A stretch of DNA of 61,078 nt from Minisyncoccota bacterium (GTDB taxonomy: Bacteria; Patescibacteriota; Minisyncoccia; Phycocordibacterales; DATDSR01): assembly GCA_036517655.1 (NCBI GenBank), contig DATDVE010000019.1:1-61078 (forward strand), read 5' to 3'. Position 1 is the first letter of the stretch; each line of letters opens with the position of its first letter. Of the stretch, positions 4,163-40,186 are shown piece after piece. The notes under the pieces were generated by a model. That model searched no databases. It was given only the letters and a program-made list of their open reading frames with translations, and had not been told where the DNA came from. The translations under genes were made by a program, and so were the position numbers.

Positions 4163-4690
4163 TTATCTGCTCGACCAAGGAATGAGTTGATTGGGAGTGA
4201 ACATTGGTATGTCTAGATTGACGCCGCGTAATCTGCAGTATTCTATGTTGGCTTTGCGTCTGGTGGTCATGTAGAAGTTGCCCGTTGGTGCGGTTAGGTT
4301 CCAGGGGGCCAAAACGTCGGATGAATTTGTTTGCTGAAATTGATTGAGGGCCGCAATTGTTAGTGGACCATATACGCCTGTTATTGGCAGGTTTGCGTTT
4401 TGATATTCGTTTAAGAATTCCTGCAAGTTCTTGATAGTCTGTACGCCCGCAGTGTCGCGGCCCTTCATTGCGTATTCGTGAAATCTGGCCACACATGTGA
4501 TGGTGTTGCCATTTGCATCTGTAGCCACACCCAAGACTTGACCAGCCGAGACTGGGCCTGTGGGGTTGACTGTCACCGCGCCGAAGAGGCCTATTGGTCC
4601 ACCAGAACCATATTGAGCATAACTAACGAACGGAAGGAAGCTACCCAAAATAAGGCTTAAAACAAGGAGTTTTGCGCTTTTTGCATTCAT
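4163..4690 (-). CDS. Small secreted protein with a peptidoglycan-binding-like C-terminal module
   Basis: Signal peptide MNAKSAKLLVLSLILGSFLPFVSYA. The last ~125 aa are paralogous to the C-terminus of 6325..9423. NLQEFLNEY..LPITGVYGPLTIAALNQFQ resembles PG_binding_1. Confidence 0.7.
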   Translation of the reverse strand: MNAKSAKLLVLSLILGSFLPFVSYAQYGSGGPIGLFGAVTVNPTGPVSAGQVLGVATDANGNTITCVARFHEYAMKGRDTAGVQTIKNLQEFLNEYQNANLPITGVYGPLTIAALNQFQQTNSSDVLAPWNLTAPTGNFYMTTRRKANIEYCRLRGVNLDIPMFTPNQLIPWSSR

Positions 4691-23563: not shown

Positions 23564-23584
23564 GTTGGATACCCGGTATCCAAC
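23564..23584. repeat. REP-like 21-nt palindrome, copy 1
   Basis: GTTGGATACC-C-GGTATCCAAC. It ends 2 nt before the RAYT stop codon. Confidence 0.85.
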
Positions 23585-23585
23585 G

Positions 23586-24233
23586 TTATTCCTCAAGTAA
23601 TAAATTTTTGAGCTCTTCATAATCAGCTCTTTTTGATTTCATATGTACGAGATTTTCTTGGGAAAAATCTTCGTACTCCTGCTTATTTTTAAACTGCGCT
23701 AGGATAATATCCTTCTTGCACATGTTGCCTGTATCGCTAATATATTCATCCCAGCTCGACCGTACAAGTTTATTTAATTCACCTGACAGATTATGAACTT
23801 TATTATTCAGATTTATGTAACTACTTAGGTGCAACAGATGCTCATTACTTTCTATATGTTTTACCTTAAACTGACCTTCGAACAGAGAGCCTGTCCTGTG
23901 ATGCTTGAGATTAAAGTAGTTCGCGTAGCCACCCAACCTTTTCATGAACTTACTTATACCATCATCTTTAAGAGGAGATAGCAGGAAGTGGAAGTGATTG
24001 GGATTTAAGCAATAACAAACTATGTCAACTAGTCTTTTTCTAGGTTTTATTCTCTCTGCCTCACTTAGTCTTGCGTGCTCAAAAATACTCCAAACAGGAT
24101 CCTCAGAGTTATAGAGATCCAAACCAAGAATAAACCTCTCGGAGTCTGCCTTATCCATAACAATTTGACGATGATCCACGCCACGATTATAAACATGGTA
24201 AAACTCACCTTGAGCAAAACTGATCTTTCTCAT
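23586..24233 (-). CDS. REP-associated tyrosine transposase (RAYT, IS200/IS605 Y1 transposase-like, COG1943)
   Basis: YHVYNRGVDHRQIV, the HUH motif CLNPNHFHFLLSP, GSLFEGQFK, and the catalytic-Tyr region SSYINLNNKVH. It is flanked by the palindrome. Confidence 0.8.
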   Translation of the reverse strand: MRKISFAQGEFYHVYNRGVDHRQIVMDKADSERFILGLDLYNSEDPVWSIFEHARLSEAERIKPRKRLVDIVCYCLNPNHFHFLLSPLKDDGISKFMKRLGGYANYFNLKHHRTGSLFEGQFKVKHIESNEHLLHLSSYINLNNKVHNLSGELNKLVRSSWDEYISDTGNMCKKDIILAQFKNKQEYEDFSQENLVHMKSKRADYEELKNLLLEE

Positions 24234-24248
24234 AAGAGGATTCTACCT

Positions 24249-24269
24249 GTTGGATACCGGGTATCCAAC
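24249..24269. repeat. REP-like palindrome, copy 2
   Basis: GTTGGATACC-G-GGTATCCAAC. It lies between the RAYT start (24233) and the NUDIX stop (24287). Confidence 0.85.
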
Positions 24270-24286
24270 AGTGGACTGCGGATATG

Positions 24287-24781
24287 TTATCTGGAATCCC
24301 AGTAAATACAGGATCCTGAATTTATCGCCTTCAGGGCGCGTTCAACCCTAGATCCAATGTTTGAACCACATAGTTTGTATACCTCTTTGTGATTCACAAA
24401 CTCATATGCTTTTATTTCATCTGCTTGTAGCTTAATTTTTCTTTTATCTGCTTCGCTAAGTACTCCGCCTAAGAACACGAAATGAAGCATCTCTTCTTTT
24501 TCGATCTGCGTATGTCGATAGTCAACACCAACCAAGCGTGGGTCCTTAAGTTCTAGTCCAAGTTCTTCTTTAGTCTCACGAATAGCGGCCTCGAGCGGTG
24601 ACTCATTTTCTTCAATTCCCCCGCCTGGTACTTCCCAGTTTTCCTTATAGGTAGTTTCGAGTACGAGGACGTTTCCTAGCTCGTCAGGAAAAACAACAGT
24701 CGAAGACATCAACTTCCTGTTTCTTTTTGCCAAATACTGAGCTCGTTCATCTAGGCTAAATAGCTTCATGTATTTATCCAT
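24287..24781 (-). CDS. NUDIX hydrolase
   Basis: Nudix box GGGIEENESPLEAAIRETKEELGLE. Confidence 0.85.
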   Translation of the reverse strand: MDKYMKLFSLDERAQYLAKRNRKLMSSTVVFPDELGNVLVLETTYKENWEVPGGGIEENESPLEAAIRETKEELGLELKDPRLVGVDYRHTQIEKEEMLHFVFLGGVLSEADKRKIKLQADEIKAYEFVNHKEVYKLCGSNIGSRVERALKAINSGSCIYWDSR

Positions 24782-24802
24782 GTTGGATACCGGGTATCCA
24801 AC
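24782..24802. repeat. REP-like palindrome, copy 3
   Basis: Identical to copy 2. It occupies almost the whole 24-nt gap between the NUDIX ATG (24781) and the trmD stop (24806). Confidence 0.85.
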
Positions 24803-34112: not shown

Positions 34113-34176
34113 GTACCAACTCACCCGGACCTTGTCTCGCCCTCTCTTATTTATAAGAGAGGGGTGGGTGAGTTAT
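34113..34176. promoter_or_regulatory. 65-bp structured repeat, copy 2 (divergent rnhB/dnaE control region)
   Basis: Same module as 30353..30417. The minus strand has GAGACA, 17 nt, TACTAT, 6 nt, ATG (rnhB). The plus-strand dnaE -10 box TATAAT (34174-34179) begins in the module's last 3 nt and lies 6 nt from the dnaE ATG. Confidence 0.6.
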
Positions 34177-34185
34177 AATCTTTAT

Positions 34186-37100
34186 ATGCCTAAACCGCCC
34201 TTTATTCACCTACACACCCACACTCACTACTCACTTCTTGATGGCCTAAGCCAGACGGAAAGATTAGTTAAGTTGGCCAAGAAATATGAGATGCCGGCCC
34301 TCGCTATCACTGATCACGGCAACATGTATGGGGCTATTGAATTTTACAAACTCTGCAAAGATGCCGGCATCAAGCCGATCATTGGCGTAGAAGCTTACGT
34401 GGCCAACAGAACTAGATTTGATAAAGATCCAAATATAGACAACAAACGCTACCACTTAACACTGCTTGCCAAGAACGAAACTGGTTATAGAAATTTATTG
34501 AAACTAGTGACAGCCTCGCAACTAGAGGGTTACTACTACAAGCCGCGCATGGATCACGACTTACTGCGCGCGCATCATGAGGGTGTCATTGCTTTGTCGG
34601 GTTGCTTCAACGGCGAACTTGCCCGAGCCTTGCGCGCGAAAAACATGGACGAGGCCAGAAAAGTTGCGAAAGCTCATCAAGAAATCTTCGGCAAAGAGAA
34701 TTACTTCCTCGAAGTCTGGCACGACCCTTCTATTGACGGCGGCATAGAAGTGAAGAACGGGATTATCGCTCTCGGCAAGGAACTCGCCATCCCCATTGTG
34801 GGGACGCAAGACTCGCATTATCTATCGCTTGACGACAAGCATGCCCATGAGACCTTGCTTGCCATACAGACGTCCGCCGAAATGAGCGACCAGAACAGGT
34901 TCTCAATGGCCCACGGCAACTATTCATTTATTTCTACCAAAGAAGCTTACGAGAAATTCGTAGACAACCCCGAAGCAGTTGAGAATACTAACAAAGTGGC
35001 AGACATGTGCGAAATTAATCTCGAACTTGGCAAATGGGTCTTCCCCAAATTGCAACTCCCAGACGGCACCACAGCCACGAGCGAGTTGCGGAGACTAGTT
35101 GAGGAAGGGGCAATCAAGCGCGAGCTCGAGATCACAACAGTCGTGCGCGAGCGTATCGATTATGAGATAGAGATTATCAAGGGCAAAGGTTATGCGCCAT
35201 ACTTCTTGGTTGTAGCGGATCTCTTGCGCTTCGCCGCGGAGAAAAATATCTATACTAATATCCGAGGTTCGGTAGCTGGGTCTATCGTCACATACCTAAC
35301 CGGCATTACCAAAGTTAATCCGCTTGAGTACAAGTTGCCCTTCGAGCGCTTCTTAAATCCTGAGCGACCTTCGGCGCCAGACATAGATATGGATTTTGCA
35401 GACAACAGACGTGATGAGGTGATCGAGTATGCCAAGAATAAATATGGTGCTGATCACGTGGCCCAGATCGGCACATTTGGAACAATGATGGCCAGAGGCG
35501 TGGTGCGTGACGTGGCCCGAGCCCTTGGCAAGCCATACGCGCTCGGCGATCAAGTTTCTAAACTAATCCCCATGGGCTCGCAAGGTTTCCCCATGACTAT
35601 TGATCGTGCTTTCGAACTCGAACCAGAGCTAAAAAAACTTTACGACACTAATCAAGAGGTTAAAGAAATTATTGACGTCGGCAAGAGGCTCGAAGGCTGT
35701 GTACGCCACATATCAGTACACGCGGCTGGAGTAGTGATCGCGCCCACAGATCTCACAGACTTCACTCCCCTACAACTTGATCCTAAGGGCGGCAAAGTGA
35801 TCACGCAGTATGACATGTACACGGTAGAGGACGCTGGACTGCTCAAGTTTGATTTCCTGGGAATTAGAAATTTGGCAATACTAGCTGACGCGGTCGAGCG
35901 TGTGAAGAAAATTAGAGATCTTGATATAGACATCGAGAAGATTCCGCTTGATGATAAGAGAACTTTTGAGATGCTCGCTCGCGGCGCGACTATGGGCCTC
36001 TTCCAACTTAACGGCGCGGGCATGACAAGATTCCTAAAAGAGCTCAAGCCCTCAAGCATCCACGATATTAACGCCATGGTGGCTCTGTACAGGCCGGGAC
36101 CGATGGAGACAATCCCGCAGTATATCGAGCGCAAACACAATCCAAATATGATCACATATCTGGATCCGAGGATGAAAGAGTATCTTGATTTCTCATACGG
36201 CGTGCTGGTATATCAAGATGATGTGCTCCTCACGGCTATACACTTGGCTGGCTACTCGTGGCTTGAGGCAGATAAACTTCGCAAGGCCATGGGCAAGAAG
36301 ATCCCCGCCGTTATGGCCGCAGAAAAGGAAAAATTAATCAAAGGCTTCATAGAGTTTGGCAAACTCTCGAAAAATTTGGCTGAACAACTCTGGCACTTGA
36401 TCGAGCCCTTCGCCGCCTACGGCTTCAACAAAGCGCATGCGGCAAGTTATGGCCGCGTGGCGTATCAGACGGCATACATGAAGGCCAATTATCCGGCCGA
36501 ATACATGACAGCCGTGCTCACAGCAGAATCCGGCGACATCGAAGAGGTGGGGAGGATTATCGAGGAGTGCAGGCGCATGGGCTTCGAGGTGCTCACGCCC
36601 GACGTCAATGAATCATATTCAGATTTTACAGCGGTCAAAGACAGCAAAAAAATAAGATTCGGATTAAGAGGCATAAAAAACTTCGGTGAGGAGATCGGCA
36701 GAGCTATCATTCGCGAACGTAAAGAACACGGGCAATACAAAACTTATTCAGATTTCCTAACTCGCGTGCAGCACAAAAATCTGAACAAGAAATCACTCGA
36801 GGCACTAATCATGGCCGGGGCGTTAGATACTTTGGGCGAACGAGAACAGATGCTTGCAAATATAGAAGAGGCGCTCGCATTTTCGCGTGCACTGGGCAAG
36901 CAAGAAAGCAACCAAAATAGCTTGTTTGGTAGCTCTGCAGAAACCGCACCAACTTTTAAAATGCGCGAAGCAAATCCGGCCACTATGGGTGATAAATTGA
37001 AGTGGGAGAAAGAATTGCTGGGTCTCTATATCTCTGGCCATCCGCTTGAGCCGCATCGCGAGAAATTCACCAAACATGATCAGACGATAAGCAAAATTAA

Positions 37101-37362
37101 GTTACTGCGAGACAGCGAACCAGTGCTTGCGGCGGGATTACTAAGCAACATCAAGACTATTATCACCAAAAGTGGAAACAAGATGCTCTTCGGCAGATTA
37201 GAAGACTTCACCGATTCAATTGAGCTAGTCGCCTTCTCAAACACGTACGAAGAATTCAAGGATTTGCTAACAGCAGACACCTGCATAGCCGTAAGAGGTA
37301 GCGTGAGCCACAGAAACGGCAACCCCAGCATAGTAATTGAAAAAGTAAAGAAACTAGAGTGA
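34186..37362 (+). CDS. dnaE: DNA polymerase III alpha subunit
   Basis: PHP domain FIHLHTHTHYSLLDG, plus GSVAGSIVTYLTGIT, PDIDMDF and NKAHAASYG. ATG 34186 is preferred over the ORF-track start inside the repeat. Confidence 0.95.
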   Translation: MPKPPFIHLHTHTHYSLLDGLSQTERLVKLAKKYEMPALAITDHGNMYGAIEFYKLCKDAGIKPIIGVEAYVANRTRFDKDPNIDNKRYHLTLLAKNETGYRNLLKLVTASQLEGYYYKPRMDHDLLRAHHEGVIALSGCFNGELARALRAKNMDEARKVAKAHQEIFGKENYFLEVWHDPSIDGGIEVKNGIIALGKELAIPIVGTQDSHYLSLDDKHAHETLLAIQTSAEMSDQNRFSMAHGNYSFISTKEAYEKFVDNPEAVENTNKVADMCEINLELGKWVFPKLQLPDGTTATSELRRLVEEGAIKRELEITTVVRERIDYEIEIIKGKGYAPYFLVVADLLRFAAEKNIYTNIRGSVAGSIVTYLTGITKVNPLEYKLPFERFLNPERPSAPDIDMDFADNRRDEVIEYAKNKYGADHVAQIGTFGTMMARGVVRDVARALGKPYALGDQVSKLIPMGSQGFPMTIDRAFELEPELKKLYDTNQEVKEIIDVGKRLEGCVRHISVHAAGVVIAPTDLTDFTPLQLDPKGGKVITQYDMYTVEDAGLLKFDFLGIRNLAILADAVERVKKIRDLDIDIEKIPLDDKRTFEMLARGATMGLFQLNGAGMTRFLKELKPSSIHDINAMVALYRPGPMETIPQYIERKHNPNMITYLDPRMKEYLDFSYGVLVYQDDVLLTAIHLAGYSWLEADKLRKAMGKKIPAVMAAEKEKLIKGFIEFGKLSKNLAEQLWHLIEPFAAYGFNKAHAASYGRVAYQTAYMKANYPAEYMTAVLTAESGDIEEVGRIIEECRRMGFEVLTPDVNESYSDFTAVKDSKKIRFGLRGIKNFGEEIGRAIIRERKEHGQYKTYSDFLTRVQHKNLNKKSLEALIMAGALDTLGEREQMLANIEEALAFSRALGKQESNQNSLFGSSAETAPTFKMREANPATMGDKLKWEKELLGLYISGHPLEPHREKFTKHDQTISKIKLLRDSEPVLAAGLLSNIKTIITKSGNKMLFGRLEDFTDSIELVAFSNTYEEFKDLLTADTCIAVRGSVSHRNGNPSIVIEKVKKLE

Positions 37363-37365
37363 GGG

Positions 37366-37393
37366 TTGACTTTGGGTTTGGGACCGCTAATCT
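37366..37393 (+). promoter_or_regulatory. Sigma70-like promoter at the start of the GC-rich unit with no convincing ORF
   Basis: TTGACT (37366-37371), 16 nt, TAATCT (37388-37393), immediately after the dnaE stop. Confidence 0.4.
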
Positions 37394-37696
37394 AGAGATA
37401 GGCAATGCGAGGTGGTCGGCCAGTCCCGCCACAATGGGTCGCACTGGACCCGCCCCAGGCGCCGCGACGCCCCTTCTGCAACAACGATTCTCTCACCAAC
37501 CGATCCTGGACCTCTCGCGAAATCCAAAGAGCCGGCCGACCAGCTCCTTCTTCTTTCAGCAAGTAACCGCTTGACATGGAAATCGCCATCTGATAGGCTG
37601 TTTTCAGCACCAGTTCTTCGAGGACGGACCCGAACAAACCCTATATGCTTAGCAATTGCGCAAGTACGTCTGGCCAGACACGTGTAGCATCCTGCG

Positions 37697-37754
37697 CTTC
37701 CCAACTTCCCAACTTCCCTGCTTCCGACTTCCATTTTCCCTCTTCCGCGCTTCC
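37697..37754 (+). repeat. Periodic CTTCC microrepeat (7 copies, mostly 8-nt spacing)
   Basis: CTTCC occurs at 37697, 37705, 37713, 37721, 37728, 37742 and 37750. It is followed by the pyrimidine tract CCTCGCCTCCCCTCCTTCC. Confidence 0.8.
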
Positions 37755-37808
37755 AACTGCCTCACCCTGCGTTCGGGCCGTCCTCGCCTCCCCTCCTTCC
37801 CGCAACAC

Positions 37809-37850
37809 CCTCCGGTAGCCATCCTCGCTGCCGGAGGTGTTCTCTTTTTA
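37809..37850 (+). terminator. Hairpin plus T tract ending the GC-rich unit, 44 nt upstream of thrS
   Basis: CCTCCGG (37809-37815) pairs with CCGGAGG (37831-37837), followed by TGTTCTCTTTTTA. Confidence 0.5.
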
Positions 37851-37893
37851 TGGGTTCTACTTTCAAAAGAAATTTGATAAGATAACTAAACAT

Positions 37894-39726
37894 ATGAGGC
37901 TACCTCACATCCCCAATCCGCTTAAGATTCTCTCGCGCGAGCATAAGCCTAAATCTCCTGAAGAGTTGGCTCCTATGCGCCACACACTTGCGCACTTACT
38001 TGCCGCTGCCGTGCTTGAACTGTGGCCGGATGCTAAGCGCACTATTGGCCCTGCTATTGATAACGGCTTCTATTACGATTTTGAGTTCCCCACTTCGCTA
38101 GAGCTTCGCGGGGCAAGCACTAAGCCAATTACAGATTCCGATTTGCCAAAGATCGAGAGCAAGATGCGCGAGCTCTTGCCTAGCTGGATTAAATTTGAAA
38201 AGCATGAGTTAACTGCCGAGGAAGCTAAAAAAGAATACATTGGAAATGAATACAAACATGAACTGATAGATGAATTCACAAAAGAAGGTCAAAAAGTAAC
38301 TTTCTATAAATCTGGCAACTATTCTGATTTGTGTAAGGGCGGCCACGTCGAGAATCCGAGTAAGGAGATCAAGCCAGATTCATTCAAACTCTCGCACATA
38401 GCCGGAGCCTATTGGCGAGGTGACGAGAAAAACAAAATGCTCACCCGTATTTACGGCTTGGCATTTGAGAGTAAGGAAATGTTGGAGAAGTATATCGCCC
38501 AGCAGGAAGAAGCCAAAAAGCGCGATCACAAAGTTCTTGGCCCGGCTCTTGACCTATTTATGTTCCACGAGACTTCTCCTGGAATGCCGTACTGGCTACC
38601 CAAAGGCATGATAGTTATAAACAAACTTGTCGATTTTTGGCGGAAAGAACACCGAGAGCGCGGATATCTAGAAATTGCTTCACCTCTAATTAATAAAAAA
38701 GAGCTCTGGATCACTTCTGGTCACTGGGACCACTACAAAGATGACATGTTCATCTCAAACATGGGGGAAGGTGAAATTTACGGCATTAAACCAATGAATT
38801 GCCCTAACGCAATGATTGTATTCGGGTCACAAACAAGAAGCTATCGGGATTTGCCATATCGCCTATCAGACACAGACATACTCCATCGTTACGAACGCTC
38901 AGGCACACTCAATGGACTTTTACGGGCACGTTCATTTAGACAAGACGATTCACACAACTTTATCGCTGAAGACATGATAGAGGCAGAATGCGCGCGAATC
39001 CTTGACCTCACGGAGCGTTTCTATGGTATTTTCGGCCTGCAATATCACCTCAAATTAAGCACGCGGCCAGACCAATTCATGGGAGATATTGAAACATGGA
39101 ATCGCGCAGAATCTGCATTGCGTAAAGTTCTAAACGAAAAAGTTGGATCTGGTAAATACGGAATTAAAGAAAAAGATGGCGCATTCTATGGTCCCAAAAT
39201 AGACATACATATGACTGATGCGTTAGGAAGGGAGTGGCAGATGGGCACAATTCAACTTGACTTCCAACAGCCTCGCCGCTTCGGACTTGAATATGCAGAC
39301 AAAGATGGTTCTCGTAAAACTCCAGTAGTAATACACAGAGTTCTATATGGTTCGATCGAAAGATTTATCGGAATCCTGATAGAACACACAGCAGGCAACT
39401 TCCCTTTCTGGCTCAGCCCAGTGCAGGCCAAAGTCTTGCCTATTACTGACACGCAGAAGAAGTATGCCGAGAAAGTATACGACGAGCTGATCAGCGCTGG
39501 CATAAGAGCCGAGATAGATACTCGCACAGAGAGTCTGGGTAAAAAAATCCGTGACGCCAAACTCGAGAAAATCCCCTACTTAATAGTGATAGGCGAAAAA
39601 GAACAAAAAGAAAGCAAAGTTACGCTGGAAGCTAGAGGGCTGGAGGCTGGAAGCAAGAAAGAAAAAGGTGTGTCTATGAAAGTCTCAGAACTAGTAGAAA
39701 AGTTAACAAAAGAAAACCTCTCATAG
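37894..39726 (+). CDS. thrS: Threonyl-tRNA synthetase lacking the N-terminal TGS domain
   Basis: MRHTLAHLLAAAVLELWP..GPAIDNGFYYDFEF (second additional domain), class II core (KPMNCP, RARSFRQDDSH) and anticodon-binding domain. The sequence begins ~45 aa later than E. coli ThrRS. Confidence 0.93.
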   Translation: MRLPHIPNPLKILSREHKPKSPEELAPMRHTLAHLLAAAVLELWPDAKRTIGPAIDNGFYYDFEFPTSLELRGASTKPITDSDLPKIESKMRELLPSWIKFEKHELTAEEAKKEYIGNEYKHELIDEFTKEGQKVTFYKSGNYSDLCKGGHVENPSKEIKPDSFKLSHIAGAYWRGDEKNKMLTRIYGLAFESKEMLEKYIAQQEEAKKRDHKVLGPALDLFMFHETSPGMPYWLPKGMIVINKLVDFWRKEHRERGYLEIASPLINKKELWITSGHWDHYKDDMFISNMGEGEIYGIKPMNCPNAMIVFGSQTRSYRDLPYRLSDTDILHRYERSGTLNGLLRARSFRQDDSHNFIAEDMIEAECARILDLTERFYGIFGLQYHLKLSTRPDQFMGDIETWNRAESALRKVLNEKVGSGKYGIKEKDGAFYGPKIDIHMTDALGREWQMGTIQLDFQQPRRFGLEYADKDGSRKTPVVIHRVLYGSIERFIGILIEHTAGNFPFWLSPVQAKVLPITDTQKKYAEKVYDELISAGIRAEIDTRTESLGKKIRDAKLEKIPYLIVIGEKEQKESKVTLEARGLEAGSKKEKGVSMKVSELVEKLTKENLS

Positions 39727-39772: not shown

Positions 39773-40135
39773 TTACAACCCACCGAGGTCGCTGAATTTC
39801 TCCTTGGCGAACCCCATGCCAAGTTCTTCGAGAATCAAATCGCTAGTCTCATCACCGAGCTCCTCGAGCCCTGCCCAGTTGAGCTCGTTCCTGTCCGGGA
39901 AATCGCCTCGCTGTGCGTATGCACGGCCCAGCGCCCACGAAAGTTTACGCATGAGACCACGATCATCCTTACTCTGTGACCCAGCTTTGACGAGCTTGGC
40001 CTCGAGGCCAATGATCTTCTGATCACGCTCTTCGATCGTGCTAGTCATCCCCGAGATGATCGTCTGGGCTTGTTTGAGCTTGAACTTGAGCCGCTTGATT
40101 TGCTCCTGCTTTCGGTCGCGCTTCGTGGCTGCCAT
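39773..40135 (-). CDS. Hypothetical coiled-coil 120-aa protein (GC-rich island F)
   Basis: ATG 40135 lies 7 nt after an AAGGAGG SD. The ORF-track TTG at 40186 is actually the -35 box. No family recognised. Confidence 0.5.
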   Translation of the reverse strand: MAATKRDRKQEQIKRLKFKLKQAQTIISGMTSTIEERDQKIIGLEAKLVKAGSQSKDDRGLMRKLSWALGRAYAQRGDFPDRNELNWAGLEELGDETSDLILEELGMGFAKEKFSDLGGL

Positions 40136-40157
40136 TGCGGGTCCTCCTTCGAGTCCG

Positions 40158-40186
40158 AATGTATCACATGCCGGCAGTACTGTCAA
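40158..40186 (-). promoter_or_regulatory. Sigma70-like promoter for 39773..40135
   Basis: Minus strand reads TTGACA (40181-40186), 17 nt, TACATT (40158-40163). Confidence 0.5.

Follow-up and report, generated by a model that had tools for sequence, protein, structure and literature searches.

What is the GC-rich stretch that separates dnaE from thrS in an ultra-small genome of the Patescibacteria (CPR), and does the regular CTTCC repeat that it carries reflect a function? The window (the whole stretch of DNA analysed, 61,078 nt) is contig C19 of a 712-kb genome assembled as 23 contigs, with 48% GC and a completeness of 96.7%. The segment in question, 37363-37893, is preceded by dnaE (DNA polymerase III alpha; 34132-37362, plus strand, stop codon TGA at 37360-37362) and followed by thrS (threonyl-tRNA synthetase; 37894-39726, plus strand, ATG at 37894). 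An earlier note on this DNA had described the segment as GC-rich, repeat-bearing and lacking a convincing reading frame, and had proposed a structured sRNA or sponge, an unusually long thrS leader or a decayed island. The GC content is indeed raised, 0.555-0.60 versus 0.48 across the genome, and the GC skew falls to -0.39. We conclude that the feature is real but ordinary: an orphan, non-coding insert that is specific to this lineage and carries the decayed remains of an octanucleotide repeat. The reading that we prefer, and to which we give slightly better than an even chance, joins an orphan non-coding insert, a repeat generated by slippage, passive transcription as a 3' extension of dnaE and persistence as tolerated filler. 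Among the three explanations first proposed the decayed island comes closest, in that the segment is absent from both assembled same-genus junctions and lacks coding signal.

The dnaE-thrS junction and its insert

The same-genus comparison was made with genomes G003 and G002; G001 was left out, its junction being unassembled. The C-terminal 250 residues of DnaE are 79% identical to those of G003, with the KKLE end common to both proteins, and the G003 ThrS is 82% identical. In that genome the gap measures 123 nt, from the end of dnaE at L019:4493 to the start of thrS at 4617, and in G002, where ThrS is 54% identical, it is ~100 nt. In the G003 gap, CCTCCCCTCC is followed by a hairpin of 14 pairs and by U7, shortly before the start of thrS. 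The identical 10-mer is found in the window (37787-37796, plus strand) just 5' of an intrinsic terminator (hairpin plus U tract, 37804-37850, plus strand), the position of which matches that of the G003 dnaE terminator. Judged by this shared arrangement, the 3' end of the segment is the old dnaE terminator. Given the short gaps of G003 and G002 together with the terminator arrangement shared with G003, we take the ~400 nt upstream of the old terminator (roughly 37385-37785) to be new in this lineage. These limits are approximate because a MAFFT alignment of the three gaps was too diverged to place boundaries. An orphan non-coding stretch of ~400 nt would thus have entered the junction in this lineage only, presumably landing past the dnaE stop codon but before the intrinsic terminator that dnaE already had. 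A relative of ~80% identity has 37355 linked to 37966, and 37360 linked to 37978.

The junction itself varies more widely. Metagenome loci were retrieved by thrS (the best ones 59-71% identical), and dnaE and thrS were adjacent in 22 rows among the 86 loci with any match, two of the 22 being one and the same G003 place. The matched ends lay 19 to 3781 nt apart, and the cargo of the longer gaps was mutually unrelated: a peptidase S51, a HAD hydrolase, HlyD plus FtsX, and orphans. As the gap lengths differ and the longer gaps hold unrelated cargo, the dnaE-thrS junction is a variable spot.

Searches for the insert elsewhere found only the insert itself. Lowering the word size to 7 or searching by tblastx still gave one copy in the source genome, and neither blastn against 40 relatives nor phage and plasmid records gave a match; 23 pattern matches in viral contigs were rejected, none being confirmed. 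A cmscan-type search of the segment, the check that the earlier note had suggested, returned no Rfam family at E ≤ 10. The covariance model R1 of the repeat domain detected only its own source among 151 genomes (0 of the 150 others); it was built from one sequence, and the stricter filters may miss weak matches. RNase P RNA and tmRNA were discarded as identities of the segment since both were placed elsewhere in the genome (C23:7102-7543 and C11:1719-2107, respectively), and 6S RNA was not found anywhere in the genome.

Contigs from three other runs agreed with the window, with 0 differences over 37446-38400 (X3), over 37503-38224 (X4) and over 37574-37748 plus 37771-38400 (X5). Such identity is uninformative on constraint. 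No change in repeat number was seen in the contigs of the three runs, which can hide rare variants. The stretches without a spanning contig among those listed were 37412-37445 (X3), 37407-37502 (X4) and 37388-37573 (X5), and 37412-37445 was bridged by none of the listed contigs in the three runs. Because the breaks fall at contig ends and their positions differ, we read them as low coverage and not as chimerism. None of the eight runs listed with the sequence was an RNA run.

The CTTCC array is a degenerate tandem repeat

The seven CTTCC motifs, mostly 8 nt apart, that the earlier note had picked out at 37697-37754 (plus strand) were confirmed. They start at 37697, 37705, 37713, 37721, 37728, 37742 and 37750 (spacings of 8, 8, 8, 7, 14 and 8 nt), and an eighth motif lies at 37796. 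Seven CTTCC in 60 nt is the maximum of the 712-kb genome, the runner-up place having four, and the three-unit pattern CTTCCNNNCTTCCNNNCTTCC occurs twice in the window and in 0 of 100 shuffles. Hence, the cluster is not a product of chance. Tandem Repeats Finder (TRF) reported CTTCCCAA x2.8 at 100% identity plus degenerate periods of 7 and 22 nt. The 100-nt stretch at 37701, with 50 C and 12 G, is among the three most C-over-G-skewed loci of the genome. The periodicity would go back to replication slippage, by which an 8-nt unit was repeated in tandem before point changes degraded the copies, and the array would not be a set of binding sites.

The distribution of such patterns is patchy. Of 401 genomes of the order, three had the four-unit pattern with at most one mismatch, one of them being the source genome (the reversed control gave 0), and a search of all prokaryote species genomes gave at least 120 stretches with the exact 8-nt CTTCC pattern, spread over many phyla. 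On this distribution the CTTCC octamer array is a sporadic type of tandem repeat and not a CPR signal. In genome G330 (L103:1480-1620) the repeat (AGGAAGTT) x4.6 immediately follows a TATAAT box, with an FtsW/RodA-like gene ~100 nt downstream, and this perfect octamer repeat could vary in copy number. The tuf-rpsJ gap of G036 (L101:1486-1690) is filled with CTAGGAAG octamer units, 3' of which are complementary CCTAGCCCC-type repeats and two ~55-nt direct repeats just upstream of rpsJ. The GGAAG strand is sense to the neighbouring genes in G330 and G036, whereas it is antisense to the neighbours in the window.

Phase-variable contingency repeats are short tandem (simple sequence) repeats of small-genome bacteria, and the window array resembles such repeats in being composed of head-to-tail copies of an 8-nt unit. 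However, it has only 2.8 perfect copies, lies outside any promoter or reading frame and has the same copy number in the contigs of the three other runs, and we do not class it as a phase-variable repeat. A TIGR array (TIGR-Tas), which PMC12045711 defines by units of 36 nt that contain two spacers of 8-9 nt and adjoin a Tas gene with a Nop domain, was ruled out; the period here is 8 nt, of which three bases vary, and the flanking genes are dnaE and thrS. Elsewhere in the source genome, C9:380-520 holds a second extreme C/U-rich tract, with a perfect hairpin and then a T-rich run on its 3' side. The gap in which it is found is downstream of an msrA-like gene, and both neighbouring genes are on the other strand.

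Probable transcription of the insert

The earlier note had likened the segment to a transcription unit bounded by promoter-like hexamers and by a hairpin with a T tract. Both elements are present on the plus strand, and the downstream one stood up. A terminator scan gave a stem of 11 pairs at 37809-37837 with a T-rich tail, and folding extended the hairpin to 37804-37841, then CUCUUUUU (z = -5.8). Hence, a G+C-rich hairpin is directly followed by a U tract, as expected of an intrinsic terminator. The upstream boundary fared less well. The TTGACT-16-TAATCT pair (37366-37393; TTGACT at 37366-37371, TAATCT at 37388-37393) matches the sigma-70 consensus at 8 of 12 positions, a promoter scan of 37000-38200 gave 0 sites and no -10 box with 5/6 matches was present on either strand of 37340-37920. 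The end of TAATCT lies 11 nt before the ATG at 37405, compared with about 6-8 nt at the leaderless peak of the genome. Placed directly past the dnaE stop codon, the hexamers could form a weak promoter. Upstream of thrS there is a -10-like box, TAAGAT at 37878, with 4/6 matches.

As no strong promoter or terminator lies between dnaE and the insert, passive readthrough from dnaE is the default, and the insert is most likely transcribed as a long 3' untranslated extension of the dnaE mRNA that would end at the old terminator. A weaker second hairpin with a T-rich run is present at 37529-37556. Transcripts of dnaE could end at this earlier point, in which case the repeat part would require its own start or would go untranscribed. 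A C/U-rich tract is not a general trait of terminators in this genome; the 30 nt upstream of 192 predicted terminators average 24% C and 23% G.

Both 3'UTR-derived sRNAs and long bacterial 3' UTRs share the terminator of their mRNA. The insert resembles them in being an untranslated stretch, with possible internal structure, between the dnaE stop codon and an intrinsic terminator. It differs from them in having neither conservation nor an identified target.

Predicted structure and the possibility of a C-rich RNA

Two inverted repeats divide the segment. The first, I1 (37409-37546), has 13-nt arms (37409-37421 and 37534-37546) that are 92% complementary, and the fold of this 5' domain was not better than those of shuffles (z = -1.0). 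The second, I2 (37619-37786), has arms at 37619-37636 and 37771-37786 that form 15-16 pairs with one bulge, and it encloses the CTTCC array. The fold of 37615-37790 gave z = -3.24, with 0 of 200 shuffles equally stable and the CTTCC array predicted to be unpaired. For the whole segment z was -3.1 on the plus strand and -1.0 on the minus strand, the signal coming from 37615-37790. The 15-16-bp inverted repeat would close the repeat-bearing part into a hairpin-like domain. Watson-Crick pairing is possible on both strands, and thus the I2 stem is uninformative on strand and could exist as a helix in RNA or as an inverted repeat of the DNA. The predicted fold of 37615-37790 and its 15-16-bp stem, unlikely by chance, are a hint of either RNA structure or a mobile-element origin.

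The RNA alternative is that a C-rich RNA with a function is made from the segment, as an independent sRNA of ~450 nt or as a species processed from the dnaE 3' UTR, in which the stem-closed loop would display seven single-stranded CUUCC motifs and titrate a pyrimidine-binding protein or G-rich RNAs. The plus-strand folding scores and the unpaired array speak for such an RNA, the unit is bracketed by promoter-like hexamers and a strong terminator, and it holds the densest CTTCC cluster at one of the three most C-skewed loci of the genome. We nevertheless regard this explanation as unlikely. The RNA has no homologues, whether by blastn in 40 relatives or by covariance model in 150, the promoter-like hexamers are weak and the spacing of the motifs is simply that of the tandem repeat. 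A genome-wide duplex scan gave only the segment itself and compositional partners such as a poly-Gly coding tract.

Moreover, the usual partners of such motifs are missing from this host. The earlier note had read the plus-strand CCUCC/CUUCC as anti-SD-like and the minus-strand GGAAG/GGAGG as Shine-Dalgarno (SD) sequences or CsrA-type GGA sites, and none of these readings holds in this organism. The 16S rRNA gene is at C12:8237-10640, and its tail after helix 45 (L227:2040-2200) lacks CCTCC. Part of the Parcubacteria have been reported to lack the CCUCC motif (PMC9297842). The 5-mers most enriched upstream of 458 long ORFs are TATAA (62 versus 8 expected) and ATAAT, whereas GGAAG is depleted there (3 versus 8 expected). 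TATAAT boxes with at least 5/6 matches precede 157 of the 458 ORFs, and their distance to the ATG peaks at 6 nt (42 ORFs) and 7 nt (15 ORFs). So sharp a peak implies that the mRNAs are largely leaderless.

CsrA (PF02599) was not found in the 96.7%-complete genome, the control search being positive in 3 of 14 genomes. The segment is like the CsrB/RsmZ sponge RNAs in that GGA motifs are clustered on one strand (GGAAG x7, minus strand). It is unlike them in that the motifs are 7-8 nt apart within a single purine tract and not in hairpin loops, and in having no Rfam match, no CsrA in the genome and no promoter for the minus strand, on which the fold gave z = -1.4. The Rho RNA-binding domain (PF07497) was likewise not found in the genome, with the control positive in 9 of 14 genomes; the tract at 37701 is C-rich and G-poor, as a rut site would be, and was rejected as such given the lack of Rho. 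SD, anti-SD and CsrA-style readings of GGA/CCUCC motifs are best avoided in lineages with 16S rRNA lacking the anti-SD.

The most specific form of the C-rich RNA alternative is that the dnaE 3' region yields a stable RNA in which the 15-bp stem presents the seven CUUCC as a decoy. We consider this very improbable, and the same slight chance covers, as part of the one proposal, the suggestion that the decoy would bind a pyrimidine-binding protein or purine-rich RNAs. If true, such a decoy would be a new type of sponge in the CPR, in a host without an anti-SD tail, CsrA or Rho, and if the RNA were abundant, the insert would offer a rare means of studying how the CPR regulate their genes after transcription.

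Coding potential

The segment contains ORFs of 53-115 aa in several frames on both strands, which the earlier note had considered unconvincing, and we agree. Scored with a model trained on 354 long ORFs, they have codon log-odds between -0.24 and 0.13, compared with 0.237 for the average true gene and 0.084 at the 5th percentile of true genes. Pfam searches of eight segment ORFs gave nothing significant and no credible relatives were found. The DUF7066 match of the 57-aa plus-strand ORF (E 0.014) was discarded at 15.8 bits versus a cut-off of 27, and no relatives of the 91-aa plus-strand ORF were found.

A different explanation is that the minus strand carries an orphan or decaying protein gene, namely the 115-aa ORF at 37387-37734, or the remnant of a gene that formerly occupied the junction. 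The 115-aa ORF is recorded as a predicted protein on seven contigs, the minus strand is purine-rich, as are the coding strands of the genome, and genes are present at the dnaE-thrS junction of relatives. We judge this explanation to be distinctly unlikely. The 115-aa ORF has a codon log-odds of -0.11 and no Pfam match, and no -10 box lies at leaderless distance. The 124-aa minus-strand frame, compared with 1.84 billion representatives, matched itself and one other sequence, the 1043-aa tandem-repeat protein P0003 (E 3.5e-13, 66 bits). This score is inflated because it is the sum over ten near-identical repeat matches of ~25-32 bits each, and P0003 was not accepted as a relative. A single repeat match has a pairwise E of 5e-6, which we estimate as an E of ~1000 when scaled to the 1.84-billion library. 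The junctions of relatives gave no support either. An intact protein gene there, of which the segment would be a pseudogene, was the outcome that the earlier note had named against its own interpretation, and none was found: no gap ORF of 15 junction loci resembles the insert, the best tblastn match having E 0.048 over 10 aa.

The public collections hold 'proteins' of 115, 43 and 166 aa from 37387-37893 (minus strand). The 166-aa entry (P0005) is the frame of the 115-aa ORF with an in-frame stop codon read as Gly, and all three are likely to be annotation artefacts. The locus is an example of how a conserved junction in an ultra-small CPR genome gathers orphan DNA of raised GC content, in which gene callers go on to predict spurious ORFs.

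Mobile-element and leader alternatives

The insert could also have arrived as a small foldback or MITE-like element, the remnant of which would be bounded by I2 (37619-37786). The near-perfect inverted repeat of 15-16 bp flanks ~135 bp, as terminal inverted repeats would, and this explanation has the merit of accounting for the arrival of the DNA. However, a search of the source genome at a word size as low as 7 gave a single copy, the 40 relatives searched by blastn and the 150 searched by covariance model gave none, no target-site duplication is visible at the I2 arms and there is no similarity to the REP-like palindromes at 23564-24802 of the window. Hence, we consider a MITE-like origin quite improbable.

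That the segment is a long thrS leader with a terminator/attenuator, in which thrS (a gene that is leader-regulated in some bacteria) would be controlled by the hairpin with its T tract, located 44 nt before the ATG of the gene, is exceedingly improbable, as no T-box or other leader family matched in Rfam at E ≤ 10, the hairpin and T tract correspond to the post-dnaE terminator of G003, which has this arrangement in its 123-nt gap without a leader, the G003 and G002 gaps are only ~100-125 nt and the insert is absent from relatives with intact thrS.

Within the preferred reading of an orphan insert, and with the same slight lean in its favour, no sequence-specific function of the insert is indicated and tolerated filler DNA is the simplest account of it.

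Other features of the window and genome

No skew switch marking a replication origin or terminus was seen across the window. The match to the 16S rRNA gene falls into two parts, and the initial 865 positions of the model are stretched over 1782 nt (C12:8237-10018, L226), which points to an insertion of ~900 nt in the gene. Insertions in 16S rRNA genes are common in the CPR. Between thrS and gyrB, the minus strand of the window contains a 137-aa ORF (39773-40186) that has native codon usage (log-odds 0.285) and encodes a charged, coiled-coil-like sequence. This ORF is probably a real small gene.
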